Below are positions 14,075-53,276 of a stretch of 64,000 bases of DNA, piece after piece (the stretch's first letter is position 1; each line of letters opens with the position of its first letter). A program made the translations under genes and the position numbers. The notes under the pieces were generated by a model. It had not been told where the DNA came from. It ran no database searches and worked only from the letters and a program-made list of their open reading frames with translations. This DNA is from an uncultured Candidatus Saccharibacteria bacterium (GTDB taxonomy: Bacteria; Patescibacteriota; Minisyncoccia; Phycocordibacterales; DATDWN01): the NCBI GenBank assembly GCA_964551495.1, contig CAZKCA010000003.1, forward strand, positions 4,535 to 68,534, read 5' to 3'.

Positions 14075-14075
14075 A

Positions 14076-34325: not shown

Positions 34326-34705
34326 AATCCTAATTATAACTTATGGGGCTATAATCGGAAGGGGAAAAGAAAAAACACCTGAAGGTGTTTTTTGCGGAGG
34401 AGGTGAGATTCTCCCTCGACTCAAATACTCGCCGTCTCTCGTATTTGGTCTGGGCACCGACTCACAACCCATTGCTCTCGATGGGTGCCCGCTCTGTCGT
34501 TCGAATCTCACCTCCTCATTTAGACAAACAAAAAATTCCTAATACCTCAATCGGTATTAGGAATTTCCGTTGCGGTGTACTCGGGTATGGTACCCCACAC
34601 TCCAAGCCTTGTAAGGCTATTTTAGCGCATTTGAGATGAGAAGAAAAAGGTTTGTGGGTCGGGTCTCTTTTCTGAGCATGAGACATCTAAGGGGGTTAGT
34701 GAGCT

Positions 34706-35479
34706 GTGCCCACAAATGCCAACAAATGCCAATTTTTTGATATAATAAAAAACATGACAGTCGGCGAATTGGTATATCAAACAGCAATCAAAGAGGGATA
34801 CAGCCCAACTTTTGCAGAAGGGCTTATTTCACCGTTGAATAATGCGGTAGAGGCGTACCAAAAAGCTTTTGAATATATAAGGGAACCCCTCAAGACGGTC
34901 AGTTCGGTAATCGAATCTGTACGACCTCAAATGGAAGCTATGGCAAAATTGCCTCTTCCTTCAATACCACAGATAACAATGCCGGCACTTCCTGAAACTT
35001 TTGACGAGGAGGATGGTTATTTCATGCCCGTATTAACACGACCGGTTCAGGAGGTTCGGATTGTGAACCCCGAGGACATTGTCGTCGCACCAGCGAGACA
35101 AAACCATAAATATGTAACTGCCTCATATCAACTCCCTGGTAATGCTAAATGGGAATCCCTCGACATCCAGTTCGTCGATGGGCATTTCGTCAGGGTATCG
35201 TATCCAAAAATGGAACCAAAGAAATTCGACTTCAAAGACATGGGATTTCTCAACACGAAGACGAACCGCCCCGACCGCAAGTGGGAGTTACTCAGGGAAA
35301 TGGCCGATAACGGTGGTGCGTTAGCCAACGATAAGTGGGATGGGCGGTATAGTAGGAACATCAAGTACGACCTAAATGTTCAACTCAGAGAGTTCTTCGG
35401 TATGAATGAAAACCCGATCCCTCATTACACTAAGAAGAATGGGTACTGGGCGAAATTTACACTACGAGGAGACAGATAG
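34706..35479 (+). CDS. hypothetical protein (island cargo)
   Basis: 257-aa ORF with island-like codon usage. Confidence 0.45.
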   Translation: MPTNANKCQFFDIIKNMTVGELVYQTAIKEGYSPTFAEGLISPLNNAVEAYQKAFEYIREPLKTVSSVIESVRPQMEAMAKLPLPSIPQITMPALPETFDEEDGYFMPVLTRPVQEVRIVNPEDIVVAPARQNHKYVTASYQLPGNAKWESLDIQFVDGHFVRVSYPKMEPKKFDFKDMGFLNTKTNRPDRKWELLREMADNGGALANDKWDGRYSRNIKYDLNVQLREFFGMNENPIPHYTKKNGYWAKFTLRGDR

Positions 35480-35655
35480 TCATTTCAACTGAGATGACGA
35501 AACAAAGACCCTTAGCTGGAAACAGCAAAGGGTCTTTTGTATTAAGGATATTTTTGGTCACAGTTCCTGAAAGTCAAAAGAAAATTGTCATTTTGTCATT
35601 CAATGACGAATAAGGGTAGAAGAGCTTAATAAAACCCTCTTCTGACATTAACCCT

Positions 35656-36951
35656 ATGGCAAAACAAAAGATCATATGGTCGCCAACCACTCGCAAGCTC
35701 GGCGACTTGATCAAAAACGGGTATAACCCACGCTCGTTAAGCGAGAATGAACGCAGGGACTTGGAGAAGTCCGTGAAAGAGTTCGGAACGGTTGTCCCTA
35801 TCGTCCTCAACATCGGCTCGCGAGCCAACACCATCATCGGCGGCGAACAGCGGGTCAAGGTATACGCCGACCTCGGTATTGAGGAGGTCGAATGTATGAT
35901 ACCTTCCCGAGAGCTAACGCTCAGTGAAGAACGAGAACTTAACCTCCGCCTCAACAAGAATACTGGCTCTTGGAATGAAGAGCTTCTCAAAGATTTCGAC
36001 ATGAACGTACTGCTCGATGTCGGCTTTGGTGACGAGGAGCTTCAGAACCTCTTCGACGACGTCGATGTAGTCGATGACGATTTCAATATAGAGAAAGCAC
36101 TCAAGGATACGATCACGCCAAAAGTGAAGTCGGGAGAAATCTGGGAACTCGGTAAGCATCGTCTTCTTGTCGGCGACTCGACTGACAAGGAATCGGTGGA
36201 GAGACTTATGAACGGAGACTTAGCGGACATCGTGTACTGCGATCCTCCCTACAACATTGGTCTCGACTATTCCAAGGGAGTTGGCAACAAAGAAAAGTAT
36301 CAAGGTTCATATTCCGGTAAGGACGACTCCAAGAAGGACAGTGAGTACATGGAATTCTTGGACAAGAGCATGGAGGTGGCAAAAAGCATAAGCAAGAAAG
36401 ACGCCCATCTATTCTACTGGTGCGATTCTTCATACATTGGGGTGGTGCAGAGCTTGTATGCAAAGCACAAGGTTGATGCGAAGCGTGTCTGCCTGTGGCT
36501 TAAGAATAATCAAAATCCTACGCACAAAATCGCCTTCAATAAAGTGTATGAGCCGTGTGTATACGGAACGACTGGCAAACCGTATCTCAACCAGGGGCTA
36601 AATAACGTAAACGAAATTCTCAACCAGGAAGTAACCACCGGCAATCAGGTGCATGACGAGATATTAGACATGATCGACATCTGGATCGAGAAGCGAGACA
36701 ACGCTCAGTCATACCAGCACCCTACTCAAAAACCTGTAACCCTGAATGAGAAACCGTTCAAACGATGCAGTGCTCCACTTCACATTGTCTATAGCGGATT
36801 TGCCGGAAGCGGCAGTGACCTCATTGCGGCAGAAGAACTGAATCGCGTATGGCGAGGTGTCGAGGTTGATCTCATCTTCGCGACCATCGTTATCGACCGA
36901 TGGGAGAAATTTACCAATCTTAAGGCAAAGAAAATCTATGGAAATAACTAA
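35656..36951 (+). CDS. ParB-like nuclease domain fused to a DNA amino-methyltransferase (N6-adenine or N4-cytosine)
   Basis: N-terminal ParB/Srx-like region (NGYNPRSL...VVPIVLN) and C-terminal MTase motif IV (IVYCDPPYN). This is a phage-typical ParB-MTase fusion. Confidence 0.8.
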   Translation: MAKQKIIWSPTTRKLGDLIKNGYNPRSLSENERRDLEKSVKEFGTVVPIVLNIGSRANTIIGGEQRVKVYADLGIEEVECMIPSRELTLSEERELNLRLNKNTGSWNEELLKDFDMNVLLDVGFGDEELQNLFDDVDVVDDDFNIEKALKDTITPKVKSGEIWELGKHRLLVGDSTDKESVERLMNGDLADIVYCDPPYNIGLDYSKGVGNKEKYQGSYSGKDDSKKDSEYMEFLDKSMEVAKSISKKDAHLFYWCDSSYIGVVQSLYAKHKVDAKRVCLWLKNNQNPTHKIAFNKVYEPCVYGTTGKPYLNQGLNNVNEILNQEVTTGNQVHDEILDMIDIWIEKRDNAQSYQHPTQKPVTLNEKPFKRCSAPLHIVYSGFAGSGSDLIAAEELNRVWRGVEVDLIFATIVIDRWEKFTNLKAKKIYGNN

Positions 36952-37687
36952 AGGAGACATATTCAAGGTCGGCGATCACACTATCGCGTGCGGTGATTCG
37001 CTTGATAGAGCCTTTGTCAGCAGGGTCATCGGGTCAAGTAAAGTACGGGCGGTCATCACCGACCCTCCTTATGGCGTTGCGTATGTTGAGAACAAGAAAG
37101 GCATATCGAAGCTCGGTGTAAAAGACGAAAAAGCAATCGTGGGCGACCATCTCCAAAGTGAAGATGAGTACGAGGAATTTACTCGCAAGTACCTTGGAAT
37201 GGTCGTGCCCTATCTTGAGGAATACAACGCGGTTTACATCTTTAATGCCGACCCAATGTTTCCGAGTCTTCGATCAGGTATGAAGTCTGCAGGCTTCTAC
37301 TATAGCCAAATGATCATCTGGCTCAAAAACCAACCTGTCATGAGTCGAAAGGATTACCTTTCGCTTTATGAACTCATCGCCTACGGCTGGTTCGGCAAGC
37401 ACAAGATGGAACGATCAAAAGCAAAGAACGTGATCTACTATCCACGACCGACACGATCAAGACTGCATCCGACGCAAAAACCCGTGGGACTTTTGCGAAA
37501 GATTATCCCTAACTCAACGAAGGTCGGCGACATTGTCTATGACCCCTTCCTTGGAAGCGGGTCGATCGCTGTTGCGTGTGAACACTTAGGTCGAAAGTGT
37601 ATCGGCATCGAGCTTGATGAGGCGTATGTGGTGGCGTCACTCAAAAGGCTTGAGAAGCTCACCGGCGCAAAGGCGGTGAAAGTATGA
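36938..37687 (+). CDS. DNA amino-methyltransferase (second, adjacent)
   Basis: Motif IV VITDPPYGVAYV and a SAM-binding DPFLGSGS segment. The ATG at 36938 overlaps the upstream MTase by 14 nt. Confidence 0.8.
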   Translation: MEITKGDIFKVGDHTIACGDSLDRAFVSRVIGSSKVRAVITDPPYGVAYVENKKGISKLGVKDEKAIVGDHLQSEDEYEEFTRKYLGMVVPYLEEYNAVYIFNADPMFPSLRSGMKSAGFYYSQMIIWLKNQPVMSRKDYLSLYELIAYGWFGKHKMERSKAKNVIYYPRPTRSRLHPTQKPVGLLRKIIPNSTKVGDIVYDPFLGSGSIAVACEHLGRKCIGIELDEAYVVASLKRLEKLTGAKAVKV

Positions 37688-37691
37688 GTGT

Positions 37692-38066
37692 ATGCAAGAA
37701 GAAGATTTTTCCAAGGATCCGTATAAAAAACAGATCTACGAAACCTACGCTCTTTGGAAGTCTCTTCCCTCATTTCTTAAAGGACAGCCGAGGGTGGCGC
37801 TTGAAAAGTTTGGCATTGAGGAAGAAGCGGTCTTTGAGCTCTTATCAGTAAAGACTCAACTTGATTTTTCCAAGAAGTATGTGGTCGACGTCGGTACGCT
37901 TACTGACTGGAACAAGCGACTTGAGAGGGACGGGATAAGCAAAAACCTAAATGTGTGGGCGCGCAAGCTCACACCGAATGTCATCTTCGCCCTCTACAAA
38001 AACATCATCAAGAGTGGTCGAGCCCACGAGGTACGTGCATGGTTTGAGATCGTAGAAAATCACTAA
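37692..38066 (+). CDS. hypothetical protein (island cargo)
   Basis: 124-aa ORF co-directional with and tightly linked to the MTases. Confidence 0.4.
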   Translation: MQEEDFSKDPYKKQIYETYALWKSLPSFLKGQPRVALEKFGIEEEAVFELLSVKTQLDFSKKYVVDVGTLTDWNKRLERDGISKNLNVWARKLTPNVIFALYKNIIKSGRAHEVRAWFEIVENH

Positions 38067-38068
38067 AT

Positions 38069-38263
38069 ATGGAACCTATAAATTTAGCAGAAATAAATCA
38101 CATTCTTTCGGACACCCTCCGCAAGGTGTTGAACAAAGAGATATCGCACAAGCAGGCATCTATGATTGCCAGACTTGCTTCTACTCTTTCCAAAAACATC
38201 GTGAATACAGAATTGAAGGAACGGGTCGAATTCCTTGAAAACGCACTACGAAGAAACAAGTAA
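38069..38263 (+). CDS. small hypothetical protein
   Basis: 64-aa ORF that overlaps the next gene. Confidence 0.3.
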   Translation: MEPINLAEINHILSDTLRKVLNKEISHKQASMIARLASTLSKNIVNTELKERVEFLENALRRNK

Positions 38264-39761
38264 TATGAAAAATCTCAGTAACATTTTAAGGAGGTCAAAC
38301 ATAACGCCATTTGAGCGAGTGATGACGCTTGTTCGTAACGATGCTCACAAAGAAAAAACTGGCAAAGGCCTGCTGTCAGAATCCGATGTGTATACACTAA
38401 CTCAAGGATGGAATGGGGATACTTCGGAAATAAAGGAATACAACAAATACATAAACATCGCTCGGCTAAAAAGCTCCATGTATATGGATGCCCAAATGTT
38501 CCTCTACAGAGCAGAATTGTCACTTCTACGAAACCAAAGGGTACTGGATACCTTCCTCCCTCGTGTAAGGATGATCAATGAGCTGACAGACCACCCATTT
38601 GCAAAAGACATCCCAGTTGAAGAGAGTGTGCGATTTCTTACACAACATACGCATATAAGGTACGAGAAGGTATTACACATATATACCTTTCACAAACTCC
38701 CTAAGGAAATACAGAGCGACCTACTTCTCTTGGACGAAGAAATCGCGAGTGATGAAAAATATTTAGGAGATCAGGTTTTTCTCTATGAGCTATTTGGTGA
38801 CGGTAATTCGCTAAGCAAGCAGAACAAAGATTTAATAATCACCAACATCTACTCTCGTATGTATTACGAAGGCGTTAAGAAAATCAAAAATAGTACATCG
38901 GAAAAAGATGGCTTTCTGCTCCACCCCTTCTTTGCTGAACTGCCAATCAAAGATTTGTTCCAGAAATTGGTGGATGATGAGCATATTGCATCCGACAAAA
39001 CGGATGATGACAGGGAAGAAGGGATCTTGTCTCTTGTTGAAGAATACGCAAGAAACAAAAATATGAGTATTGAAAGAGTTATTAAAGAAAAGTTGTCACA
39101 ATGGATCGATGAAGGATTGTTCGTCAATGCATACACTCCACTTTTTATGAGCGAACAATTCGACACATGGGGTGGCAATACTAAGAAGAGCCACAAAGAG
39201 TTGTTCGCGATTTGGTATGCAGAACTTCAAAAATCTAAGCTGTATTTTGCAGATCTTTTTAGCGCAAAGAAGCTAGAAAAAAGCACCTTTGAGAAAGAGT
39301 TTTTAGGTGTGCCAAAAAAGATAGAAGTGCTGACTGGAACCAGTTTGTATGCTTGTAAAGAAAAAATTGATTTTGTGGAAGAATACAAGAAGCAAATTAA
39401 ATGTCTTTTGCCAATCGCTAATATATTTCTTTTTATAAAGAAATATGCAACGCCAACTAAAAACTTTAAGACGCTGTGCGAGTTTAAAAAATTGGCTCAA
39501 AAAATATCGTCAATGTTTGATATTGATATGACAGAAAAGTATACAGAGTTCATTAATTCATATCAGGAAGAAGTTGCATTTCTCAACCTAAGCTCAAGCA
39601 GACTCGCAGACACGGCAACAGAACATCTGTACACTCAAGAGTCCCTGCAATATGTCATCGATATTGATGAGCGTTGTTTTGCCTTTGATCTCGAGGAAGA
39701 GGGCGAGACAGCAACTATCGCGCAGATGTACTCCGAAGAATTTAAAAAGCTTGGAGCATGA
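38235..39761 (+). CDS. large hypothetical protein (508 aa, island cargo)
   Basis: Long ORF with no recognisable motifs. Confidence 0.5.
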   Translation: MKTHYEETSNMKNLSNILRRSNITPFERVMTLVRNDAHKEKTGKGLLSESDVYTLTQGWNGDTSEIKEYNKYINIARLKSSMYMDAQMFLYRAELSLLRNQRVLDTFLPRVRMINELTDHPFAKDIPVEESVRFLTQHTHIRYEKVLHIYTFHKLPKEIQSDLLLLDEEIASDEKYLGDQVFLYELFGDGNSLSKQNKDLIITNIYSRMYYEGVKKIKNSTSEKDGFLLHPFFAELPIKDLFQKLVDDEHIASDKTDDDREEGILSLVEEYARNKNMSIERVIKEKLSQWIDEGLFVNAYTPLFMSEQFDTWGGNTKKSHKELFAIWYAELQKSKLYFADLFSAKKLEKSTFEKEFLGVPKKIEVLTGTSLYACKEKIDFVEEYKKQIKCLLPIANIFLFIKKYATPTKNFKTLCEFKKLAQKISSMFDIDMTEKYTEFINSYQEEVAFLNLSSSRLADTATEHLYTQESLQYVIDIDERCFAFDLEEEGETATIAQMYSEEFKKLGA

Positions 39762-39983
39762 AAATATTGTTGGCCATAGTAAATAATTCGGGTCACTTTT
39801 TATCCTTGACAAACCAGTAATTTATTGCTATACTACTCAAATAGTTCTTTGTAATGGATCAGTGTAGTTAAGACGAGCTTTTTGAGCCTTATTTTAGGGC
39901 CTAAAAAGCTTGTCTCAACTACGGGACTAGTCGAGCCGAAGCGTTCTTCGGTAAATGCCCATAAGGCAGAAGGAGATAACGTC

Positions 39984-40874
39984 ATGCAGACGATTACTCA
40001 GGCAACTGCCGGTCAGATCAAGCAGATCAACCGGTTCGGAAACGACGCCATCGAGAAGGTTCTCGGTGAGCTCGGACTCGACAACCCTGGCGCCCAGCGC
40101 GTCATCGAACACGGCGACGAATTCGCCGAGGCCATCCGCACGGCCGCCCTCGCCTCGCTCAAGGACCTGTCGGTCTCCGACAAGTTCAAGGACGAGGAGG
40201 TGGAGTCGAGCTACGGCTACCTCTCTGGCTACACGAAGCCCAAGTCGATCACGGAGCAGTGCAATATCCTGCGCCAGATCTTCCCGGGCATCGGGTTCGC
40301 CGACGAGAAGCTCGCCGAGCGCGAAGTGCCGCAGCACGCCGAGGGGTGGTTCGCCATCCCGAAGTGGCAGACGGTCGCTCCGACCTACACCGAAGCGGTC
40401 CAGAAGGTGCTCGACGCGGTGAAGTCGGCTCGTAACGGGAAGTTCTACAACTACCGTGACGGGCAGATCAACAACTCGCGTCTGCGCCAGACGGCCAAGA
40501 CGGCGTCGGTGTTCCAGAAGCTCGGCAACGAGCAGAAGGATCACGACATCCTCGTGGTGGCCGCCCAGTTCGGCATCCGCCATCGGGGACGTTCTGTCCG
40601 CCGTGCTCGTGAGGTCTTCGCGGCCAACGAGTTCGGACTCGGCGCATTCGCCATCGGCATCATGATCCTGACCCACCAGGAACGGCTCATGAACTATAAC
40701 GACCTCTGGATCGACTGCTCGGGTGACGAGTTTGATGATCCGGATGCCGATGTCCGCTTCGATCTCGCCCCGTGCTTCGACTTCAGCGACGGCGGGGTCG
40801 AGTTCGGCGCGTACTGGTTCGGCTATGCCAGCGGCCACTGCGGTTCCGCGTCGGCTTTCGTTCCGCAGAACTGA
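39984..40874 (+). CDS. DGR target (variable) protein, with the variable region at the extreme C-terminus
   Basis: The start at 39984 follows an AAGGAG RBS. The gene is about 62% GC. Its last 131 nt before the stop form the VR. Confidence 0.8.
   Translation: MQTITQATAGQIKQINRFGNDAIEKVLGELGLDNPGAQRVIEHGDEFAEAIRTAALASLKDLSVSDKFKDEEVESSYGYLSGYTKPKSITEQCNILRQIFPGIGFADEKLAEREVPQHAEGWFAIPKWQTVAPTYTEAVQKVLDAVKSARNGKFYNYRDGQINNSRLRQTAKTASVFQKLGNEQKDHDILVVAAQFGIRHRGRSVRRAREVFAANEFGLGAFAIGIMILTHQERLMNYNDLWIDCSGDEFDDPDADVRFDLAPCFDFSDGGVEFGAYWFGYASGHCGSASAFVPQN
40738..40868 (+). repeat. DGR variable region (VR)
   Basis: 131-nt ungapped match to 41282-41412 with 17 mismatches, every one at an adenine of the TR copy. 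Confidence 0.9.
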
Positions 40875-40942
40875 TCCTTGATGCTCGAACTCTTGAGTCT
40901 TTTGAATCCTTTCTTTTGATTCTTGAGTTCGCGGCAAATTTT

Positions 40943-40972
40943 CGGGGTTATCCACACGTGTGGGTAACCCCG
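40943..40972 (+). other. GC-rich stem-loop downstream of the VR (candidate DGR homing hairpin or target-gene terminator)
   Basis: CGGGGTTATCCACACGTGTGGGTAACCCCG forms a roughly 14-bp stem with one mismatch, followed by a T-run. Confidence 0.5.
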
Positions 40973-41281
40973 ATTTCTTTTTATACAGAAAATATTTTTG
41001 ATATACTTATACATGAGTCTAGGCTCATGCACGGTCGTTCAAGGATTGCCGTCGCCGAACTCTTTCTCTTTGTTCTCATTAAGAGAAAACGACCAGGGTC
41101 TTCCCGATTACGATTTGGAAGAGAGCGTCGCGATGAGGAGATACTGCTTGTCTTTGTTTAAGACAGACCATTAAGCCTATATGGCGGGTGCTGTCAGATA
41201 AAATTCAGGAGCGAGATCGCACCTTGTTTCCAACAAGGAATACTTTCAAGCTCTGGTGGCTCGGATGAGCAAAGACGAATT

Positions 41282-41412
41282 ATCCGGATGCCGATGTCCG
41301 CTTCGATCACGCCCCGTACTTCAACTTCAACGACGGCAAGGTCAAGTTCGACACGAACTGGTTCGACAATGCCAACGACAACTACGGTTCCGCGTCGGCT
41401 TTCGTTCCGAAG
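41282..41412 (+). repeat. DGR template region (TR)
   Basis: Intergenic copy of the VR in which every VR/TR difference is A in this copy. It lies between the target gene and avd/RT. Confidence 0.9.
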
Positions 41413-41455
41413 TCTCTCCACTTCACAAAGAGCATCCATACGGATGCTCTTTGTC

Positions 41456-41809
41456 TTATCGAGAAGTACTAGATGACCTAATCCATCCACCAAGCATGCG
41501 GCCGATTTCATCGATCATTTCTTGGAGTGTGGTGTATTTCTTGTTATCAAGTGACTTTGTTTCTTTCATTAGACGAATAAAAAAACGAAGAGTGTTTAAC
41601 TTGATACTGGCCCTTTCCAAAATTACAGTCTTATTACCACTTTTCGAATATCCTGCCTCGAGAAAATATTCGATGACATCGACAATCAAATTTTCACTTC
41701 GTTCGTAGACAGTGAACCTTTCTGCTTTAGGAATTAACTTACGATGTTCTTGAAATGTTTTATACAGTTCATACGACTTTTTAATAATAGGGATATCAAT
41801 TTCATTCAT
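41456..41809 (-). CDS. avd: Avd-like accessory variability determinant (four-helix-bundle family)
   Basis: 117-aa basic helical protein with four-helix-bundle family features (...ERFTVYERSENLIVDVIEYF...EMIDEIGRMLGGWIRS), adjacent to the TR and RT. Confidence 0.65.
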   Translation of the reverse strand: MNEIDIPIIKKSYELYKTFQEHRKLIPKAERFTVYERSENLIVDVIEYFLEAGYSKSGNKTVILERASIKLNTLRFFIRLMKETKSLDNKKYTTLQEMIDEIGRMLGGWIRSSSTSR

Positions 41810-42854
41810 GCGAGTTTATACAAAGTTATTTGATAAAATAATTAACGCCGAGAATCTCTTTTCGGCGTGGGATGAGTTCAAGCTCGGGAAGAGAAACAAA
41901 TCCGACGTGCTTGTTTTTGAAAAGAATCTTGAGCAGAATATTTTTGCCTTGCATAGAGAATTAGTAAGTAAGGCATATCGGCATGGAGCGTATAGCAACT
42001 TCTATATTTATGATCCGAAACTCCGACATATTCATAAAGCGACGGTTCGAGACAGAGTGTTGCATCATGCAATTTTTCAGATACTCAATCCAATTTTTGA
42101 ACCAACTTTTATATCCCATTCTTTTTCCTGCCGCGTCGGAAAAGGAACTCATAAAGGCGTTCATGTTTTGGACATAATGCTTCGTAAGGTCTCGAAGAAT
42201 TACACTCAAACAGCGTATGCACTTAAATGTGATGTCAGAAAGTTTTTTGATAGTGTTGACCACACTATCTTGATCAAGCTTCTGCAAAGAAAGATGAAAG
42301 ACCTTGGGGCTTTGTGGCTTATGGAGGAAATAATCGAGAGTTTTGCCGGAGAGTTTTCCGATTTGTTTACCCGAAGAGGGCTTCCTATTGGTAATCTGAC
42401 ATCGCAACTGTTCGCCAATGTCTACATGAATGAGTTTGATCAGTTTATGAAAAAAGAACTGAAAATTAAAAATTATGTTCGCTACACTGATGATTTTGTT
42501 GTTGCATCTGATAACGAAAATTTCTTGAAAGACCTTGTCCCTAAAATCCAAGACTTCCTTCACAATCATCTCAACCTTGAGTTGCATCCAAGCAAGGTCA
42601 CCATAGGTACATACCGACGTGGCATTGATTTTCTCGGCTACGTTTCTTTTCCTCACTACCGTACATTGCGCAAACGAACCGAGAAAAGAATGCTTCGCAA
42701 GCTGGATGAGAAAATCGAGTTGTTTAAACAAGGAGAGATCGACGAGGAAAGATTGAAGCAAACACTTCAGTCTTACCTGGGAGTCTTGAGTCATGCTACC
42801 GCTCTCAGATTGAGCCGAGATTTCAGCAATCGAATATTGTTTAGGAGAACATGA
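41808..42854 (+). CDS. DGR-type reverse transcriptase
   Basis: RT motifs 1-7 including the DGR hallmark IGNLTSQ and the catalytic YTDD (RYTDDFVV). The N-terminus LFDKIINAENLFSAWDEFKLGKRNK is typical of DGR RTs. Confidence 0.9.
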   Translation: MRVYTKLFDKIINAENLFSAWDEFKLGKRNKSDVLVFEKNLEQNIFALHRELVSKAYRHGAYSNFYIYDPKLRHIHKATVRDRVLHHAIFQILNPIFEPTFISHSFSCRVGKGTHKGVHVLDIMLRKVSKNYTQTAYALKCDVRKFFDSVDHTILIKLLQRKMKDLGALWLMEEIIESFAGEFSDLFTRRGLPIGNLTSQLFANVYMNEFDQFMKKELKIKNYVRYTDDFVVASDNENFLKDLVPKIQDFLHNHLNLELHPSKVTIGTYRRGIDFLGYVSFPHYRTLRKRTEKRMLRKLDEKIELFKQGEIDEERLKQTLQSYLGVLSHATALRLSRDFSNRILFRRT

Positions 42855-42902
42855 GCGAAAGAAGGTAAACATAGTAACAATAAAAACTGCCTTATTCTGC
42901 GC

Positions 42903-43763
42903 CTAAAACTTGATCGCCTCGTAATAATTATTCCGGTCATCGATCCTACTCTCTGACTTGAGGAGCGTCGGTAGATCACGGTGGTTAAAGTTGCTCAAGT
43001 TTATCTTGTTAAAAAGTGGCCGTGCGATTGAATAGACAATCGCAGTGCCGTCCTTCACATTGCCGTACTGGTCTTTAACCGGGAGCTGGGACCAGATAAT
43101 AATGTCTCCAATCGTTGGATCGAGCGGGAAAAGTGCTTTGGCGATTTTGAAGGCTTCACCATGCATCGTGCCTTTTTGAAGGTTGGTTGTAAGATTTTCA
43201 TCAGCATTTATTTTTATGAGCACTCCAACAACTGGTTCTTCGCTTTTGTACCCATACTCAGTCAACATGGACGGTTTATATGGATCAAGAGTCGTTTCAA
43301 CAACTCTTGGCTTCTTCATATTTGTCTCCGAACCAAGCGAAGTATTAATGGTGTCTCTAATCCTTTCTTCCAAAGTTTTAGGTTTGGTGACCACCTCCTT
43401 TATTGAGTCACTAGTCGTTTGCGCATTTTCCTGCTTTTGAGCCTGAGATTCCAAATCATTAGAAGCAACTTTCTGGGATGATTTGGTATCCATTGTTGTT
43501 CCAGCAATAACAAGGAACAGGATCACAATTCCTATTTTTATTGGTCGACTGATAGGCATTCGAATCTTACTCATCACAAACTGACGTGTAGGTTTGAGAA
43601 TCATCACGGCGGCTAGTAGCAGGAAAAGCCCCGGGATGAAATCCGAGAACAGGGATACAAATCCGGTCACAGCAAGCAGTACTCCTATAACCCAGCTAGT
43701 AATTCCGAAGGATTTCTTTTTGGTCTGACCCTCTAAAGACGCTTCTTTGTTTTCCATAGGCAA
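42903..43763 (-). CDS. membrane-anchored protein (hypothetical)
   Basis: Two N-terminal TM helices followed by a soluble domain. Confidence 0.45.
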   Translation of the reverse strand: MPMENKEASLEGQTKKKSFGITSWVIGVLLAVTGFVSLFSDFIPGLFLLLAAVMILKPTRQFVMSKIRMPISRPIKIGIVILFLVIAGTTMDTKSSQKVASNDLESQAQKQENAQTTSDSIKEVVTKPKTLEERIRDTINTSLGSETNMKKPRVVETTLDPYKPSMLTEYGYKSEEPVVGVLIKINADENLTTNLQKGTMHGEAFKIAKALFPLDPTIGDIIIWSQLPVKDQYGNVKDGTAIVYSIARPLFNKINLSNFNHRDLPTLLKSESRIDDRNNYYEAIKF

Positions 43764-43857
43764 ATAAATTATTTGAATAATGTCTCGTACCTTAGCTTCT
43801 ATTCGAGGCTTTGCGAAGCTCGAGTTACCAACAGCTCTTTTGTGAGGGAAATTGGGT

Positions 43858-44949
43858 TCATTTGTTGTAGGTATAACTCTGGCGAACCAAAGGAATGGCT
43901 TTCTCTAGGTCTGCCTCGCTCTCAATCTTTACCTCATAGTCTCCGTTGCCCCAATGACCTATGGGCTTGGGTTTGGTGAGGTCGCGAGCGATATTTTCTG
44001 GATCATCGAGGTGTCCGCTCGGCACGTTCAAAAAGATTTTTAGTGAATCGCGAAGCACTACCACGTCACAGAAATTAGTGGTGAGCTTGTACGCTATATA
44101 TTTTGCTTTGGCTTCCTCAATAATTGATTCATCTAGAGTGGAGATCTGCTCCTTGAGAGAAGAGAATAATCTTTGTGCGTCTGGACTCGCAGATCTTACA
44201 TGATCATCAACGGTATAGTGGATTTTATCTTTGAATACGCGTTTCTGTTTTTCTCCCTGCTCAAATACCTCCGATGTTGAGATCTTCACTTTACGCTGGA
44301 CTTCCGGTTCAACGAGAAGCAGGTCGTGGTCATATAACTGATATCGAAGCAACTCAATATTCATCGGCAGCAGATCGGCAGTATCCAAATCAAACTTGTT
44401 GTAGCTTTCAGCAACGCAGATCACTCGTGGCGATGCCCAGTCAATCTCGATATCAATTTCCTTTCTTCGTACCAACGCCTCGAAATCCGCCTTATGATCC
44501 AAAAGCCAGCGGAGATATGACAGACCTTGGTTGATAACACTATCGTTTTGACCCTTCTTGTATTCGATGATCACCGGCGACCCATTGTTGTCTATACCTA
44601 GACTATCTATTCTTCCGCCGAAGCTAGTGGAGTATTCGGTAGCCAAAAATTTGATATTCAAAATCTCATCCAAATTTTTCTCGAAGAGTTTTTGTATGTC
44701 TTTTTCTAGTCCCACCTTCGTTGGAGGGACTTTCGTTGCAGTTTGATTGTGAGTAATAAAAATGGCCATGAGGTTCATGGCGCGGGGTTGGTGCATATAC
44801 ACTAAGCCCCACGCTAGCTTTAGGTCTTGCGACCCCATACAAGTTTCCCTGTATGGCCCGATGAAGAGTCGCTGAACGTGGGGTTCAGTATCTTCATCGG
44901 GACTTTGGGCCATGCCCGCCGGAAATCCGGACGAGTTTAGGCCGCTCAT
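43858..44949 (-). CDS. PD-(D/E)xK nuclease-like protein (DUF-type, possible restriction/defence-related)
   Basis: The segment GGRIDSLGIDNNGSPVIIEYKKG fits a D...EYK nuclease core. About 360 aa. Adjacent to the recombinase. Confidence 0.4.
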   Translation of the reverse strand: MSGLNSSGFPAGMAQSPDEDTEPHVQRLFIGPYRETCMGSQDLKLAWGLVYMHQPRAMNLMAIFITHNQTATKVPPTKVGLEKDIQKLFEKNLDEILNIKFLATEYSTSFGGRIDSLGIDNNGSPVIIEYKKGQNDSVINQGLSYLRWLLDHKADFEALVRRKEIDIEIDWASPRVICVAESYNKFDLDTADLLPMNIELLRYQLYDHDLLLVEPEVQRKVKISTSEVFEQGEKQKRVFKDKIHYTVDDHVRSASPDAQRLFSSLKEQISTLDESIIEEAKAKYIAYKLTTNFCDVVVLRDSLKIFLNVPSGHLDDPENIARDLTKPKPIGHWGNGDYEVKIESEADLEKAIPLVRQSYTYNK

Positions 44950-44995
44950 ATTCAGTTGTACTTTCTCAGAATATCAAAAATAGCACCATTAAACA

Positions 44996-46429
44996 ATGGG
45001 CTTAAGTTTGGGAGATTTGCGAGGTCAGGTTATCAACTTCTTATCTACTCGGGACGCTCTGGACTCCTGGGGAGGGTTGCGTCATTCATTTGAATGTATG
45101 AAAAACGCAACAATACAGGCGCCATTAGGGACTGCGGCCAAAGTAGCAACCCCAATAAGGGTCAGGTACTGCCTTTACGCGAGAAAAAGTACCGAATCAG
45201 AGGAACGGCAAGTCCTCTCAATTGATAGCCAAATCAAAGAGATGCTTCAATTAGCAGAGCGAGAAGGTCTGGAGGTCGTGACCATGAAGCGAGAGAGTCA
45301 CTCGGCCAAAGAGACTGGGCAACGGCCGGTCTTCAATGAAATAGTTGATGAATTACGACAAGAAAAATTTAACGGCATTCTCACATGGGCGCCAGATCGT
45401 ATCAGTAGAAATGCGGGTGACCTCGGAAAGATTGTAGACCTCATGGATGAAGGAAAACTCCATGAGATACGAACATATGGACAGAGTTTCAGGAATAATC
45501 CGAATGAGAAATTCCTGCTGATGATTCTTGGATCGCAAGCAAAACTCGAAAATGATAATCGAGGTATCAACGTGAAGCGAGGTCTACGAACGAGAGTGGA
45601 GATGGGACTTTGGCCCGGCATGGCGCCGCTCGGATATCTGAACCAGAAGCTCATGGACAAGAAATGCAGAATTATCATTGATCCGGAACGTGCGCCGGTC
45701 GTAAAGCAAATGTTTGAGAAGGTCGCATACGAAGGATGGAGTGGTCGTAAAGTATACAACTGGCTTCGATTCGACCTCAACTTCCATACACGAGGCAACA
45801 GACCGCTAACACTTAGCGGTGTATATCGAATGCTCCAAATGCCCATCTATTACGGACCATTCGAGTATCCCCGAAACAGCGGTAGTTGGTATCAAGGGAC
45901 GCACGAACCTCTTATCACCGAGGAACTATTTAAGAAAGTGAATGAGCAACTGAAGCGTGACAAGATCGTGCGAGAAAACCGAGAATTCGCCTTCACTAAG
46001 CTGTTCACCTGCGGCATGTGCGGATCGGGTATCACTGCTCAGGAAAAATACAAACTACTCAAGGACGGTACGAATGCCAAATACATTTACTACTCCTGCT
46101 CGAAAGCGAGGGACAGAAATTGCAAGAACAAATACATACGAGAGGAAGAACTTGTCGAGGAATTATTTAAAGTCATCGACAAAGTGAGTATTAACGAATT
46201 AGGTATGAGAATGAAGCTCGAAGAAGAAATCAAGCGGTTCAACCGACTGCAACGACTCGCGGCCAAAGGAAAACCAAAGATGCAGATCGACGAGGATGAC
46301 ATCGCCACACGAGAATACGCTAAGTATGTTCTGCGTGAAGGAACGGCAATCGAGAAACGTGAGCTAATGGGTCACTTGCGAAGCAGGCTGGTGCTGAATG
46401 ATAAAAAGATTACGCTGATTGAAGAATAA
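44996..46429 (+). CDS. large serine recombinase (resolvase/invertase catalytic domain, recombinase domain, zinc ribbon)
   Basis: Catalytic YARKSTESEERQ, a recombinase domain, a Cys cluster CGMCGS...YYSCSK...C, and a C-terminal coiled-coil. The true start may be an internal ATG. Confidence 0.85.
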   Translation: MGLSLGDLRGQVINFLSTRDALDSWGGLRHSFECMKNATIQAPLGTAAKVATPIRVRYCLYARKSTESEERQVLSIDSQIKEMLQLAEREGLEVVTMKRESHSAKETGQRPVFNEIVDELRQEKFNGILTWAPDRISRNAGDLGKIVDLMDEGKLHEIRTYGQSFRNNPNEKFLLMILGSQAKLENDNRGINVKRGLRTRVEMGLWPGMAPLGYLNQKLMDKKCRIIIDPERAPVVKQMFEKVAYEGWSGRKVYNWLRFDLNFHTRGNRPLTLSGVYRMLQMPIYYGPFEYPRNSGSWYQGTHEPLITEELFKKVNEQLKRDKIVRENREFAFTKLFTCGMCGSGITAQEKYKLLKDGTNAKYIYYSCSKARDRNCKNKYIREEELVEELFKVIDKVSINELGMRMKLEEEIKRFNRLQRLAAKGKPKMQIDEDDIATREYAKYVLREGTAIEKRELMGHLRSRLVLNDKKITLIEE

Positions 46430-46480
46430 TAACGATAAATATATATTGACAAACGATATGCGATGAATTAGGATAGAACT

Positions 46481-46984
46481 ATGAAATTATCATCAACAAT
46501 GTTTCTGCAAATAGTGATCTTGCTCATAGGTCTTGGTGCTCTTGCCTTCCTGCTTATGATGCCCCGCCTTGAAGGCGTAAACGCAGGTGTCACCACGCTT
46601 TATCAAATATACTTTGATGACCCATTCTTGATATTCGTATATGCGGGTTCTATTCCATTCTTTGTCGCCCTCTATCAAGCCTTCAAGGTGTTCGGATATG
46701 TCGGACAAAACAAGACGTTCTCCGAGGCGGCGGTAGGAGCGTTGCGAAAGATAAAATACTGCGCGTTCATCACTGCGGGTGCAATCATCGCCGTAGACGC
46801 TTTCCTCATGATACACACGCGTCTGTATCCCGAAGTCGGCGCGGTAGATGGTCCCGAGGGCGCTGTGATGCTCGGACTCATCGCAACATTCATTTCCGTC
46901 GTCATCGGCACTGCGGCGGCAATACTTGAACGGACTCTGCAGAACGCCGTAGAGCTAAAGTCCGAGAACGACCTAACCGTATAA
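46481..46984 (+). CDS. DUF2975-like membrane protein
   Basis: Four-TM protein immediately upstream of a small XRE HTH regulator, which is the known YozG pairing. Confidence 0.5.
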   Translation: MKLSSTMFLQIVILLIGLGALAFLLMMPRLEGVNAGVTTLYQIYFDDPFLIFVYAGSIPFFVALYQAFKVFGYVGQNKTFSEAAVGALRKIKYCAFITAGAIIAVDAFLMIHTRLYPEVGAVDGPEGAVMLGLIATFISVVIGTAAAILERTLQNAVELKSENDLTV

Positions 46985-46989
46985 CCACC

Positions 46990-47193
46990 ATGTCTATCAT
47001 CATCAACATAGATGTCATGCTCGCGAAGCGGAAGATGAGCGTTACTGAACTGGCAGAGAAAGTTGGAATCACCATGGCAAATATTTCCGTGCTAAAAAAT
47101 GGAAAAGCTAGAGCTATCCGATTAGCAACCCTAGAAGCGATTTGCAAAGCCTTGGAATGTCAGCCTGGAGATATTTTGGAGTACAAAAAGTAG
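46990..47193 (+). CDS. XRE-family helix-turn-helix transcriptional regulator (YozG-like)
   Basis: 67-aa protein with the HTH LAEKVGITMANISVLKNGKARAIRLATLEAICKAL. Confidence 0.7.
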   Translation: MSIIINIDVMLAKRKMSVTELAEKVGITMANISVLKNGKARAIRLATLEAICKALECQPGDILEYKK

Positions 47194-47370
47194 AAATTAA
47201 ATGATATGCTTGCCGTACAAACCTGCGCGATATACTACGAGTGTCTCGCGCTTCCCGATACGGCACAGGAATACGACCGACACGCCTGTGGCGCCACAAG
47301 AAAACAGCGTCCTTTACAGGGCGCTGTTTTGCTTATCTATTGAGCCGAATTTTGATAAGATGAAGATGCA

Positions 47371-47592
47371 ATGAGAGAATTTACGACCCCTTTGAAGGAA
47401 TACGGTTCACTTCTCCCGCCGGTCTGGAGCTGGCGCGAGGAAGAGATGACCAAGCAAGAAGCAAAGGAGCACTTTGATTGGTTCTTATCGATTATTCCGG
47501 AGCGCATTGCAATGCTTGAAAAAGTTATTAATGCAAACCCTCCGTCCGTAGGGGCAATTATGGTTCCTATTCAGCAATATGGAAAACTCTGA
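47371..47592 (+). CDS. small hypothetical protein upstream of the sigma factor
   Basis: 73-aa ORF overlapping the sigma factor start by 14 nt. It could be a co-transcribed partner or anti-sigma candidate. Confidence 0.35.
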   Translation: MREFTTPLKEYGSLLPPVWSWREEEMTKQEAKEHFDWFLSIIPERIAMLEKVINANPPSVGAIMVPIQQYGKL

Positions 47593-48190
47593 CGTAGAAA
47601 TCATTAAAAAAGCCAAAGCAAACTCCCAGATATTTGAGGAGCTGTATCGGAAGTATGCCGATAAGGTGTACAACTACTTTTGGTACAGAACCGGTCACCA
47701 GAAAGACGTGGCCGAGGATTTGATGCAGGAAACTTTTTATCGCGCATTCAAGCATCTGTCACGTTTCCAGATACGTGGATACTCGTACCTAACCTATTTG
47801 CTCACGATCGCGCATAATATTCTTGCAAACTACTATCGCTCCAAGAAAATGATTCCTCTTTCAGAGCTCGGGGAGATCGGCGAGGATTTTGATGTTCCAG
47901 CTGAGATTACTGAATCGCTTGAGCGAAAGGACGAAGCACGGGCGCTTTGGCGTGCAATCCAAGACCTCTCCTCCGCGGAGCGTGATGCGCTACTCATGTT
48001 TTATCAAAAAGAAATGCCGATCAAGGATATAAGCCGGGTCATGGCAAGAAGCGAGAACGCGGTAAAGCTCATCCTTTCAAGGGCACGAAAAAAGCTCGCA
48101 CAGCACCCCTATCTGCGGGATATGGTTGGGTTTGCAGATCAGGAGCGAAAGTACACCAAACCTCGATATCTTAAGATGAAAAAAGAATGA
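47579..48190 (+). CDS. sigma-70 family RNA polymerase sigma factor (ECF-like)
   Basis: Region 2 (DLMQETFYRAFKHLSRFQ) and a region 4 HTH (LMFYQKEMPIKDISRVMARSENAVKLILSRARKKL). Confidence 0.7.
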   Translation: MENSDVEIIKKAKANSQIFEELYRKYADKVYNYFWYRTGHQKDVAEDLMQETFYRAFKHLSRFQIRGYSYLTYLLTIAHNILANYYRSKKMIPLSELGEIGEDFDVPAEITESLERKDEARALWRAIQDLSSAERDALLMFYQKEMPIKDISRVMARSENAVKLILSRARKKLAQHPYLRDMVGFADQERKYTKPRYLKMKKE

Positions 48191-48314
48191 CACCTTTTTA
48201 AGATCTGCGTGTTAAATAAGGTGGAAGCAGATAGTGGAGCTTCCATAAAGGTCGAAATTATCAGTCTTAAGGAATAACCCCTAAAGAGTGCGTGGAACTT
48301 AGTCAGGCCTTAAG

Positions 48315-48764
48315 TTGCAGGCACTTGAGAAGGAGGTAAACATACCTATGTCTCGCGAACTCATACCGCGCAACTTCCTAGAGAATATCTGGGATTTCGA
48401 CGATGATCTTCTGTCACTCTTCGATACGCGGTCTACGTCCGGATTATCTTCAGGGCTATCGGTGTCCGAGGATGATAAGCATGTGTATGTAGAAGCATCG
48501 GTTCCCGGCGTTGATCCAGACAAGATCGAAGTATCGTATGACAAGGGTGTTCTCTGGATACGCGGCCAGCAGGAGCAGGAGAAAGGCGGCGATCGCAAGT
48601 ATTACCGCAAAGCTTCGTCTTCGTTCTCCTACCGAATGGCTATTCCAGGGAATGTGGATGAGAACAAAGATCCGGAAGCAACGTACAAGAACGGCATTAT
48701 GAAAGTGACGTTCAACAAAGTTCCGGAACCACAGCCAAGGAAGATTGCAGTGAAAGTCCAGTAA
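48315..48764 (+). CDS. Hsp20/alpha-crystallin small heat-shock protein
   Basis: Alpha-crystallin domain (HVYVEASVPGVDPDKIEVSYDKGVLWIRG...GIMKVTFNKV) preceded by the strong RBS AAGGAGG. Confidence 0.85.
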   Translation: MQALEKEVNIPMSRELIPRNFLENIWDFDDDLLSLFDTRSTSGLSSGLSVSEDDKHVYVEASVPGVDPDKIEVSYDKGVLWIRGQQEQEKGGDRKYYRKASSSFSYRMAIPGNVDENKDPEATYKNGIMKVTFNKVPEPQPRKIAVKVQ

Positions 48765-49194
48765 TCCCTTGCCTTACTAGTTCCGCACCTGTGGGCTTGG
48801 TCGGATATGAAGGCAATCACATTCTTTCCGTCTCTCCTTAAGTGGTTGAAATGGGAAGTGTGGAGACTGAATAAGACTTAGGAAGAGTCGGTGATTTACA
48901 ATTGAATAGTCGGTGTGTTTAGCGCACATAGCGCGAAATAATCCCGGATAACCGGGGTTGAGGCAGAGAGGATCGGGGTTTCTTGTAATCTTCCGCATTA
49001 GGTGTGCAGGTACCGTAGACTTCCTGCAGAAGTTTGGAAGATTCACCCATTCCTCCTGTCCGTCAAAAGAGCCGGGCAAACCAAGAATAATCTTGGGCAC
49101 CCGGATCAGGAGATAACACAATAGCTTACCTCTTGATCCGGATGTATGTCGACATCCGGTCAATTTTCTATTACAATTAATAAAGCAAACGCGT

Positions 49195-51912: not shown

Positions 51913-51918
51913 ACTGCC

Positions 51919-53163: not shown

Positions 53164-53276
53164 TACATTGGTACATACAAAAAGAGCGATTACTTCGCTC
53201 TTTTTGTATACAACACAGCTTTGTGGGTCACAGCTCAACGTCGAGCTTGTGGGTTGCCAAAACTAATAAGTTCTCT

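Follow-up and report, generated by a model that had tools for sequence, protein, structure and literature searches.

A complete, probably functional diversity-generating retroelement of a CPR-specific lineage, with a conserved structured RNA upstream of its template repeat

The diversity-generating retroelements (DGRs) of CPR/Patescibacteria were reportedly first surveyed by Paul et al. in 2017. [quoted passage not shown] 2018 (PMC5758913). CPR DGRs form clade 2 of Roux et al. 2021, and their targets have no recognisable domains (PMC8144416). The DGR of Bordetella phage BPP-1 is arranged as mtd-avd-TR-brt (PMC6182149), and its RNA runs in the order stop strand A, template repeat (TR), Avd stem-loop, primer, stop strand B, stem-loop, single-stranded ring and RT stem-loop.

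The window, that is, the whole 64,000-nt stretch of DNA that was analysed, very likely carries a complete and probably functional DGR of a CPR-specific lineage with architecture B3, located on a mobile island integrated in a tRNA-Ser gene; this reading, with the RNA mechanism inferred below, is the best explanation of the locus. The features of the element and of its surroundings are as follows.

34394-53296, no strand: 18.9-kb island with an 18-bp direct repeat GCGGAGGAGGTGAGATTC at its bounds
39806-39834, plus strand: promoter-like site 5' of the target gene, TTGACA-17-TATACT with TG, 11 of 12 consensus matches (called by consensus match only)
39984-40874, plus strand: target gene, 296 aa, with a predicted N-terminal three-helix bundle followed by a predicted C-type-lectin-like domain
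40738-40868, plus strand: variable repeat (VR), within the 3' end of the target ORF
40841-40865, plus strand: A-free, GC-rich, IMH-like 3' segment of VR, 25 nt
40875-40935, plus strand: conserved 3'UTR of the target gene with YTTGA-type motifs, mostly 8 nt apart
40942-40973, plus strand: conserved GC-rich inverted repeat of 14 bp, followed by a T run
41282-41412, plus strand: TR, containing 30 adenines
41385-41409, plus strand: A-free 3' segment of TR, 25 nt, the counterpart of 40841-40865
41456-41809, minus strand: avd, 117 aa, antisense, between TR and the RT gene
41808-42854, plus strand: probable DGR reverse transcriptase (RT), 348 aa, intact, with LPIGNLTSQ and RYTDDFVV
44996-46429: large serine recombinase, on the island

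The first-pass annotation had described a complete DGR consisting of target-VR, TR, Avd and RT. This holds, as the four components are intact, the substitutions are strictly adenine-specific and the cassette recurs in dozens of Patescibacteria contigs. The same annotation had called the DGR uncharacterised, which was too strong, since the layout is that of B3 (PMC5758913) and CPR clade 2 is known (PMC8144416). As in B3, TR and RT are co-oriented and avd is inverted between them. The gene order, the orientations, the Patescibacteria hosts and the AAC/AAY-rich codons of TR are shared with the CPR B3 DGRs (PMC5758913, PMC8144416). So is the type of target, which is short, has a C-terminal VR and possesses no signal peptide, membrane segment or Pfam domain. 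The cassette itself does not differ between these DGRs and the element described here.

The RT matches Pfam RVT_1 (7e-27). Its best NCBIfam match is a group II intron RT, with 150 bits against a cutoff of 300, NCBIfam having no DGR-RT model. The assignment to the DGR clade is made from the motifs IGNLTSQ and YTDD, both noticed at first pass and found in the intact ORF, and from the context of Avd and TR, which supports it. The start codon of avd overlaps the RT start. The presence of an Avd-like gene, also claimed at first pass, was upheld with its strand corrected to minus: the protein passes the cutoffs of NCBIfam NF033474, "diversity-generating retroelement protein Avd" (87.5 bits, cutoff 80), and Pfam bAvd (3.5e-18, 66.5 bits, cutoff 40).

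VR and TR align without gaps and differ at 17 positions, and the TR base is A at all 17. The ungapped comparison revealed 12 A>G, 3 A>T and 2 A>C substitutions. Within TR, 17 of the 30 adenines are changed and all 101 non-A positions are identical (hypergeometric P of all 17 mismatches on TR A sites = 1.3e-13), and the re-alignment and tabulation bear out the earlier statement that the differences are confined to TR adenines. In the target ORF, every mismatch falls on the first or second base of a codon. The 17th, C at VR 40866 against A at TR 41410, is a fixed difference at the VR/TR boundary. Judging by the aligned relatives, it is a boundary difference common to them and not a product of random mutagenesis, because their TR tails and VR copies are fixed there. 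Among the TR tails listed for related loci, CGAA stands at the boundary in all but one (L056), most of them reading CCGAAG, and the listed VR copies read CCGCAG, with the same exception (CCGGAG). The target homologues mostly have Gln here. As the boundary site is fixed, the mutagenised span is 40765-40840, with 16 sites.

The 3' end of VR and TR is A-free and GC-rich and carries a VR-specific A/C difference, with an inverted repeat downstream. An end of this kind (IMH/IMH*-like) is shared with BPP-1, as are a pattern of adenine-specific TR-to-VR transfer, Avd together with RT, a target of C-type-lectin fold (here a predicted one) and a tetraloop stem-loop just 3' of TR. [quoted passage not shown] Its counterpart here, 40942-40973, is not adjacent but lies ~68 nt from the VR end and, unlike the repeat of BPP-1, doubles as a terminator, acting as that of the target gene. 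The conservation of the target 3'UTR extends to orphan targets, and a role of this region in target recognition is possible.

Upstream of TR, the following elements of the TR RNA were delineated.

40980-41007, plus strand: promoter-like site for the TR RNA, with the extended -10 TGATATACT at 40999-41007
41015-41281, plus strand: structured leader of the TR RNA, helices P1-P9, 267 nt
41131-41145, plus strand: primer-like strand CGAUGAGGAGAUACU, which pairs with the TR 3' flank and is followed by the 2-nt linker GC (41146-41147)
41148-41278, plus strand: domain closed by the 12-bp helix P6 (41148-41159 with 41267-41278), stop-duplex-like
41411-41423, plus strand (the partner, downstream): last two TR bases and 3' flank AGUCUCUCCACUU, which pair with leader strand 41131-41145
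41427-41452, no strand (downstream): stem-loop of 9-11 bp with tetraloop AUAC, 14 nt after TR, abutting the avd stop codon

The TR RNA is predicted to be ~445 nt long (41015-41460), with a conserved promoter of its own and an end hairpin abutting the convergent avd. Both the extended -10 and the leader are conserved in both orientations of the cassette. RNAalifold predicted 93 pairs in the RNA, 58 of them with compensatory changes. The predicted pairs are paired in 95% of cells, and 288 cells are compensatory against 36-65 in slid controls; none of 500 shuffles reached the observed values. Helix P6 ends 3 nt before TR and shows compensatory changes in 8 of its 12 pairs; inside the domain that it closes are hairpin P7, a single strand that is conserved (CAGAUAAAAUUCA, 41195-41207) and the long stem-loop P8-P9. 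The stem-loop 3' of TR shows such changes in 8 of 9 pairs, resembles the Avd-binding stem-loop of a preprint (10.1101/2023.10.23.563531) and is probably a bidirectional terminator for the TR RNA on the plus strand and avd on the minus strand. A coding function of the leader was rejected: the compensatory pair changes, together with indels whose lengths are not divisible by three, point to RNA structure. The leader has no match in Rfam at gathering thresholds or at relaxed E-values.

For the duplex of the leader with the TR flank, the energy averages -13.5 kcal/mol with cognate partners, -9.65 with non-cognate ones and -6.4 with shuffled tails (39 RNAs). The distal part of the duplex visibly covaries. 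The three proximal pairs (ACU:AGU) are nearly invariant and therefore give no covariation signal; they are broken at a few loci, for example L024, L069 and L074.

The leader was found at all RT-matching loci except L079, where TR could not be detected either, and L050, where the RT is a fragment and avd is missing. Loci with orphan targets have no leader, save for five (L022, L023, L025, L058 and L076) with a partial or full-length copy and no RT or avd. RTs that are 57-58% identical and have a target from another protein family likewise have the leader beside them. A search of the viral contigs of IMG/VR gave 120 chance matches with a 14-mer of the leader, none confirmed by nhmmer, and no match with a 19-mer, so the DGR clade is not visibly viral in IMG/VR.

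The RNA of the element and the BPP-1 RNP (10.1101/2023.10.23.563531) share, in a match of order and topology only, a duplex with the TR 3' end, 2 nt, a helix of 11-12 bp by the TR 5' end, a hairpin, an A-rich single strand and a long stem-loop. Sp G57 is essential in the BPP-1 RNA, and here a G likewise follows the last paired base. Read from its primer, the RNA described here has the order primer, stop B, stem-loop, conserved single strand, long stem-loop, stop A, TR and Avd stem-loop; relative to BPP-1 the order is circularly permuted, and a 5' domain of ~115 nt (P1-P5) is added. The spacer-like RNA comprises 267 nt 5' of TR, and in BPP-1 140 nt 3' of TR. No 3' spacer of the BPP-1 type is present: the 43 nt between TR and the avd stop amount to one hairpin, and the conserved covarying RNA lies 5' of TR. 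Two further differences from BPP-1 are the inverted avd between TR and RT and a TR RNA that seems to be transcribed separately from the RT mRNA. On balance, it seems somewhat probable that B3 elements use a circularly permuted form of the Bordetella phage DGR RNA for priming and termination, with the primer, the stop strand, the A-rich strand and the long stem-loop in the 267-nt 5' leader and only the Avd-type stem-loop 3' of TR.

Under this permuted arrangement, RT and Avd would bind the TR RNA, with hairpin 41427-41452 in the role of the Avd-binding stem-loop, and leader strand 41131-41145 would form the template:primer duplex with the TR 3' flank 41411-41423. The cDNA would be primed in cis at or next to U41145/G41146 and would start at about A41410; the nucleotide that primes and the base copied first have both been guessed by analogy. 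Synthesis would proceed through TR with misincorporation at adenines and would halt at P6, 3 nt upstream of TR. The cDNA would then replace VR, the recipient site being marked by 40841-40865 together with the downstream conserved UTR and inverted repeat, and ~16 codon positions would be varied on the C-terminal C-type-lectin-like domain predicted for the 296-aa target. If A41410 were the first templated and transferred base, the corresponding VR position should vary, whereas it is almost always C.

That fixed position is among the points in favour of another reading, possible though rather doubtful, in which the DGR is real but the leader serves as a regulatory 5' leader, a stabiliser or a loading site for RT and Avd, and priming comes from elsewhere (for instance sequence antisense to avd or a nicked target). 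The placement of the spacer 3' of TR in characterised DGRs also fits it, and the invariant proximal pairs of the primer duplex are outside the reach of covariation. Against this stands the small space available 3' of TR, where only ~43 nt, mostly one hairpin, precede the avd stop, and where the sole conservation beyond the hairpin is that of the avd coding sequence. The leader strand, moreover, covaries with the TR 3' flank, and the arrangement in which a helix begins 2 nt after the primer-like strand and ends 3 nt before TR reproduces the core of the Bordetella phage RNA. The leader also travels with TR-avd-RT in both orientations and with two target families.

The arrangement TR(+)-avd(-)-RT(+) is found in ~40 of ~80 loci, in Patescibacteria contigs, where it may follow the target or precede it in inverted orientation. 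Two of the loci (L003 and L004) adjoin terminase and portal genes. When 39 related loci are counted together, TR and VR disagree at 634 of the 1154 TR-A sites and at 61 of the 3844 non-A sites. In two pairs of loci with identical TRs (L007/L009 and L046/L047), the VRs differ at 20 and 16 positions, all of them TR adenines. Decay is also seen in the family: at L001 a DUF2726 gene stands in place of the RT, with 10 A and 5 non-A mismatches between the repeats, leader remnants without RT persist at L022, L023 and L025, and about half of the related loci are orphan targets. These observations lend some weight to the unlikely view that the element in the window is itself decayed or dormant, its VR/TR differences recording past activity with no diversification in the present genome. 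The independent assembly L088 (Logan, SRR12977061) carries the same VR, which agrees with dormancy; as the sole other assembly, identical to window positions 39600-43500 (3.9 kb), it is uninformative about VR variation between assemblies. Dormancy is opposed by the full length and intactness of RT, avd, target, TR, leader, promoter and hairpins relative to relatives, and by the absence of any non-A mismatch between VR and TR in the window, such mismatches being present in decayed copies. An origin of VR and TR by partial duplication of the gene 3' end and ordinary mutation has nothing beyond the existence of the repeat in its favour and is effectively ruled out by the adenine bias, with all mismatches on one base of one copy (P ~1e-13), the same bias in the 39 loci, and an Avd identified by a curated model and an RT adjoining.

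The first-pass annotation saw no recognisable family in the target. This stands for the sequence, with no match in Pfam, PHROGs, NCBIfam or a PDB sequence search, but not for the fold. The AlphaFold model is confident and was grouped with C-type-lectin folds, and the C-terminus, for which a C-type-lectin-like or an Ig-like fold had been considered, is predicted to be C-type-lectin-like, neither Ig-like nor a new fold. A Foldseek comparison of the model with PDB gave no significant match. On the model, VR falls in the C-type-lectin/FGE-like fold, as in C-type-lectin DGR variable proteins. Treponema denticola TvpA and other DGR variable proteins of this fold have no detectable sequence similarity to the target, which, compared with TvpA-type proteins, is smaller, has the N-terminal three-helix bundle and possesses no lipoprotein or secretion signal. 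The target family comprises at least 1,676 clusters at 50% identity. In the alignment of homologues the body is 72-90% identical among the single-domain ones, and the C-terminal 43 residues are hypervariable on a fixed scaffold.

The target gene has a GC content of 0.60 and a GC3 of 0.85, and the surrounding element 0.40-0.48. Target coding sequences exceed their own RT, avd and host by 15-25 GC points, and the excess is limited to the target coding sequence across hosts of 26-60% GC and two unrelated target families. Adenine mutagenesis spread over the gene was rejected as its source, with three lines against it. A outnumbers T in the body of the gene (positive AT skew), and the skew turns negative only in VR; both T3 and A3 are depleted; and targets are equally GC-rich where TR-RT is inverted upstream, which makes co-transcription of TR-RT and target impossible. 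The GC excess may be a sign of constraint tied to DGR targeting.

The repeat bounding the island corresponds to the 3' end of a tRNA-Ser gene (53277-53366, minus strand), and the GC content of the island is 0.40-0.50 against ~0.31 for the host. Besides the DGR, the island encodes two DNA methyltransferases, a PDC-S18 candidate defence gene, a sigma factor, Hsp20, a Clp ATPase and HtrA. The island is mobile and integrated in the tRNA-Ser gene of a Paceibacterota (Patescibacteria) genome.

As a DGR, the element is nothing new in kind, CPR genomes being known to be rich in exactly this cassette. What appears to be new is the conserved and strongly covarying 267-nt RNA upstream of TR; no description of such a structured RNA, of the fold of the target family or of GC-rich targets was found in the searchable literature. 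The sharply GC-rich islands are confined to target coding sequences, and the predicted C-type-lectin-like fold is now given to a very large unannotated CPR target family. The B3 architecture, that of most CPR DGRs, has had no described mechanism, and the RNA model is testable and locates the primer-like strand, the stop-like helix and the Avd-type hairpin by exact coordinates. The model suggests that the mechanism of the Bordetella phage has been kept through circular permutation of the RNA. If this is true, the permuted RNA would explain why avd can lie inverted directly behind TR, and in the largest natural group of DGRs the functional RNA would escape surveys that reach no further than 40 nt upstream and 100 nt downstream of TR.

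The variable repeat (VR, 40738-40868) at the 3' end of the target gene and the template repeat (TR, 41282-41412) align without gaps and differ at 17 positions, each occupied by A in TR (12 A>G, 3 A>T and 2 A>C). Thus, 17 of the 30 TR adenines and none of the other 101 TR positions are changed in VR, which bears out the adenine-only divergence described in the first-pass annotation; for 17 random mismatches all landing on adenines, P = 1.3e-13. Only codon positions 1 or 2 of the target ORF (39984-40874) are hit. The annotated count of 17 diversified positions was reproduced, but the last of them, VR 40866 C / TR 41410 A, is a fixed difference between the copies. At this site the TR tails listed for related loci (designated L001-L088) read CGAA, mostly CCGAAG, and the VR copies read CCGCAG, except for L056 in both cases (CCGGAG in its VR); the corresponding residue of target homologues is mostly Gln. 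Since it is fixed across the listed copies, the difference is, judging from the alignments, a marker of the VR/TR boundary akin to IMH and IMH* and not a product of mutagenesis. A 25-nt A-free, GC-rich segment lies just upstream of it (41385-41409 in TR, 40841-40865 in VR).

Across 39 loci, TR and VR differ at 634 of 1154 A sites versus 61 of 3844 non-A sites. In two pairs of loci with identical TRs, L007/L009 and L046/L047, VR differs at 20 and 16 positions, every one a TR adenine. Comparisons of this kind show diversification in nature at the level of the DGR lineage rather than the present activity of the window copy. A second assembly of the element, the only other one found, has the same sequence as that copy.

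The genes downstream of TR are as follows.
41456-41809, - strand, avd, 117 aa, recognised by Pfam bAvd and the NCBI Avd model
41808-42854, + strand, RT, 348 aa

The avd product exceeds the cutoffs of both Pfam bAvd (66.5 bits, cutoff 40) and the NCBI curated model 'diversity-generating retroelement protein Avd' (87.5 bits, cutoff 80), confirming the Avd-like gene noticed earlier. Thousands of relatives of the RT have 345-349 aa, so the RT is full length by comparison; it matches RVT_1 (Pfam, 7e-27) and contains LPIGNLTSQ and RYTDDFVV, in which the previously reported IGNLTSQ and YTDD are found. The start codons of avd and RT overlap divergently (CAT/ATG, 41807-41810), the gap in relatives L085-L087 being just 4 nt. 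Because of the overlap, each promoter must lie inside the CDS of the other gene, or else RT must be translated from a read-through TR transcript.

The scan for related loci, limited to one genome per species, returned 80 loci, nearly all in Patescibacteria MAGs, and further loci were added by exact-protein look-ups. TR, avd and RT are present within 6 kb in roughly half of them. Only two layouts were found. One is target(+)-TR(+)-avd(-)-RT(+), that of the window; in the other, the TR-avd-RT block stands upstream of the target in inverted orientation. In both, TR and RT share a direction and avd is antisense between them. This is architecture B3 (target-TR-(avd)-RT) of Wu et al., which accounts for 90% of their CPR set (PMC5758913). 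Roux et al. placed CPR DGRs in a clade of their own, clade 2, with targets lacking recognisable domains (PMC8144416). The cassette type is therefore already known, and the element, whose initial reading as a complete DGR with target-VR, TR, Avd and RT is upheld, is an ordinary, intact member of the CPR B3/clade-2 group. Its description as uncharacterised does not apply to the cassette. For a putative RNA scaffold upstream of TR, no description was found in the searchable literature.

Decaying cassette copies were also observed (L001/L002, 9473-10322; L022; L023; L025). L001 keeps target, leader, TR and avd, has a DUF2726 gene in place of RT and shows 10 A and 5 non-A mismatches; in some other decaying loci, leader fragments alone remain.

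The target protein gave no match in Pfam, PHROGs, NCBIfam or PDB sequences, as anticipated by the annotation, which had recognised no family. Its homologues comprise 2,553 hits in a 90%-clustered database and at least 1,676 clusters at 50% identity; the few with names are all 'hypothetical protein', from Parcubacteria, Zambryskibacteria, Paceibacterota and Patescibacteria. When 25 members are aligned, body identity is 72-90% among single-domain members and 51% for the two proteins with tandem domains. The C-terminal 43 residues, where the diversified codons had been located, combine a fixed scaffold, P.ADVRF..AP.F.F..G.V.F...WF..A...YGSASAFVPQ, with hypervariability at discrete positions. With 61 sequences as input, AlphaFold2 gave a confident model (pLDDT 94.4, pTM 0.84) in which a three-helix bundle at the N-terminus precedes an alpha/beta domain. 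In the tandem homologues P0071 and P0080 (478-482 aa), both the core and the VR-like C-terminal segment occur twice.

The target-avd interval was aligned in 22 loci of both cassette orientations. The 267 nt upstream of TR (the leader, 41015-41281) are highly conserved, begin right after a conserved extended -10 box, TGATATACT (40999-41007), and have no match in Rfam. RNAalifold proposed 93 pairs, 58 of them with compensatory changes. Counted explicitly, 95% of the cells are paired and 288 are changed on both sides, versus 36-65 when the partners are offset by 1-3 columns; the observed values were not reached in any of 500 shuffles. Conservation, covariation and topology of this RNA are thereby shown.

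Predicted elements of the TR RNA
41015-17 / 41062-64, helix P1
41022-24 / 41054-56, helix P2
41029-39 / 41044-53, helix P3
41090-93 / 41127-30, helix P4
41099-108 / 41113-22, helix P5
41131-45 with 41411-23, leader strand pairing with the TR 3' flank
41146-47, two unpaired bases, GC
41148-59 / 41267-78, P6, 12-bp helix ending 3 nt before TR
41163-69 / 41187-94, P7, enclosed by P6
41195-207, conserved single strand CAGAUAAAAUUCA, enclosed by P6
41208-54, long stem-loop P8-P9, enclosed by P6
41427-52, stem of 9-11 bp with a tetraloop, 3' of TR

The stem-loop at 41427-52 directly abuts the avd stop codon and looks like a bidirectional terminator. For the duplex between leader and TR flank, the mean energy over 39 distinct RNAs is -13.5 kcal/mol for cognate strands, -9.65 for non-cognate strands with different cores and -6.4 (sd 2.7) with shuffled tails. 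Its distal extensions plainly co-vary in many loci (e.g., L026, L031, L051, L067, L081 and L086); the three proximal pairs (ACU:AGU) are invariant, hence outside the reach of covariation, and are broken in a few loci.

With an nhmmer profile, the leader was found in every RT-matching locus but two: L079, where TR is undetectable as well, and L050, whose RT is a fragment and which lacks avd. Orphan-target loci have no leader, save five (L022, L023, L025, L058 and L076) with a partial or full-length copy and no RT or avd. The leader also adjoins RTs of 57-58% identity that accompany a different, unrelated target family (L085 and L086).

The 3'UTR of the target gene (40875-40935) carries YTTGA-type motifs mostly 8 nt apart (CCTTGA, CTCGAA, TCTTGAG, TTTGAA, TTTGAT, TCTTGAG), kept in the equivalent 3'UTRs of 78 loci, even those of orphan targets that have no RT nearby. 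Next comes a conserved inverted repeat/terminator of 13-14 bp (40942-40973).

In the Bordetella phage RNA, as described in a cryo-EM preprint (10.1101/2023.10.23.563531), TR 117-129 pairs with Sp 47-56 to form the template:primer duplex, with priming from Sp A56. Two nucleotides follow, of which the first, G57, is essential, and then comes the 11-bp 'cPRT stop' duplex, in which Sp 59-70 pairs with the part of avd that immediately precedes TR. Next in order are a short stem-loop, adenosines, the 'thumb ring', which is single-stranded, and a long stem-loop that binds RT; TR itself is directly followed by an 11-bp Avd-binding stem-loop with a tetraloop. The survey in that preprint was restricted to the 40 nt before and the 100 nt after TR. 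The CPR RNA shares these elements and their local order, but its chain enters at the primer strand and exits past the Avd-type stem-loop. Its order is primer, GC, stop strand B, hairpin, A-rich single strand, long stem-loop, stop strand A, TR, Avd stem-loop, whereas that of the phage is stop strand A, TR, Avd stem-loop, primer, stop strand B, hairpin, ring, RT stem-loop. It seems that the CPR RNA is a circular permutation of the phage RNA with an added 5' domain (P1-P5).

From this likeness we infer the functional roles of the CPR elements. Priming would occur near U41145/G41146, cDNA would start near A41410 and stop at P6, and Avd would bind the stem-loop at 41427-52. The base presumed to be templated first is a fixed C in VR, so transfer to VR would have to leave out the 5' end of the cDNA. 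The permutation of modules to the 5' side would allow avd to sit inverted 43 nt behind TR, and a stop-like helix P6 preceding TR would explain why the TR 5' boundary (41282) lies 3 nt past a stable helix.

The host DNA polymerase I is nearest to Paceibacterota and Zambryskibacteria proteins. The DGR sits in an 18.9-kb island of 40-50% GC inside a genome of ~31% GC; a host stretch of very low GC (12001-14321, 0.13-0.23) includes an 81-aa ORF (14076-14321, GC 0.13).

Features of the island
34394-34411 and 53279-53296, 18-bp direct repeat GCGGAGGAGGTGAGATTC (3' end of tRNA-Ser), bracketing the whole higher-GC island
44996-46429, large serine recombinase, the only recombinase seen on the island
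44822-44943, - strand, LOOT RNA match (Rfam RF03000), 81 bits, gathering threshold 46.4

No tyrosine integrase was detected on the 18.9-kb island. Its other genes include a ParB-methyltransferase, a second methyltransferase and a candidate defence gene, PDC-S18 (PADLOC). The LOOT RNA match is at the 5' end of ORF 43858-44949, where the PDC-S18 match (PADLOC, 1e-99) starts only at residue 54, so the RNA is probably the 5' leader of this gene. The right-hand part (47579-53163) encodes an ECF-type sigma factor, Hsp20, a 905-aa ClpB/ClpC-like ATPase and an HtrA protease, a stress-protein set on a mobile island that recalls transmissible heat-resistance loci.

The block of two methyltransferases, island genes g124, g64 and g508 and the DGR is seen again in L007, L042 and L047, and in L052 with no g508 match detected. 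The recombinase, from a 133-member cluster (90% identity), recurs in L009 and L062 at 86-90% identity. This recurrence indicates, at the sequence level, that the DGR rides on a mobile element circulating among CPR bacteria. One relative adjoins terminase and portal genes; a leader-based search found no trace of the clade in IMG/VR viral contigs. In both L085 (1-1966) and the window (43858-46429), a large serine recombinase and an SduA_C/NucS-like (PDC-S18-type) gene adjoin the DGR; as L085 is a distant relative and has another target family, the linkage appears to be recurrent.

The target CDS has a GC of 0.60 (GC3 0.85, A3 0.04, T3 0.11), compared with 0.40 for RT and avd, 0.40-0.50 for the island and about 0.31 for the host. 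The step is limited to the CDS, the UTRs having 0.33-0.48. Across ~80 loci, targets have 0.47-0.65, flanks 0.26-0.62 and RTs 0.28-0.53, with an excess in nearly all, including orphan targets; the second, unrelated target family is likewise GC-rich (0.60 vs 0.36, and 0.56 vs 0.45; L085 and L086). A by-product of adenine mutagenesis is ruled out: the gene body has a positive AT skew and VR alone a negative one, and loci with the inverted layout are just as GC-rich.

The TR RNA leader is the new part of this analysis. Added interest comes from the GC anomaly of the targets, a predicted fold for a very large orphan family and a DGR RNA that is apparently permuted.
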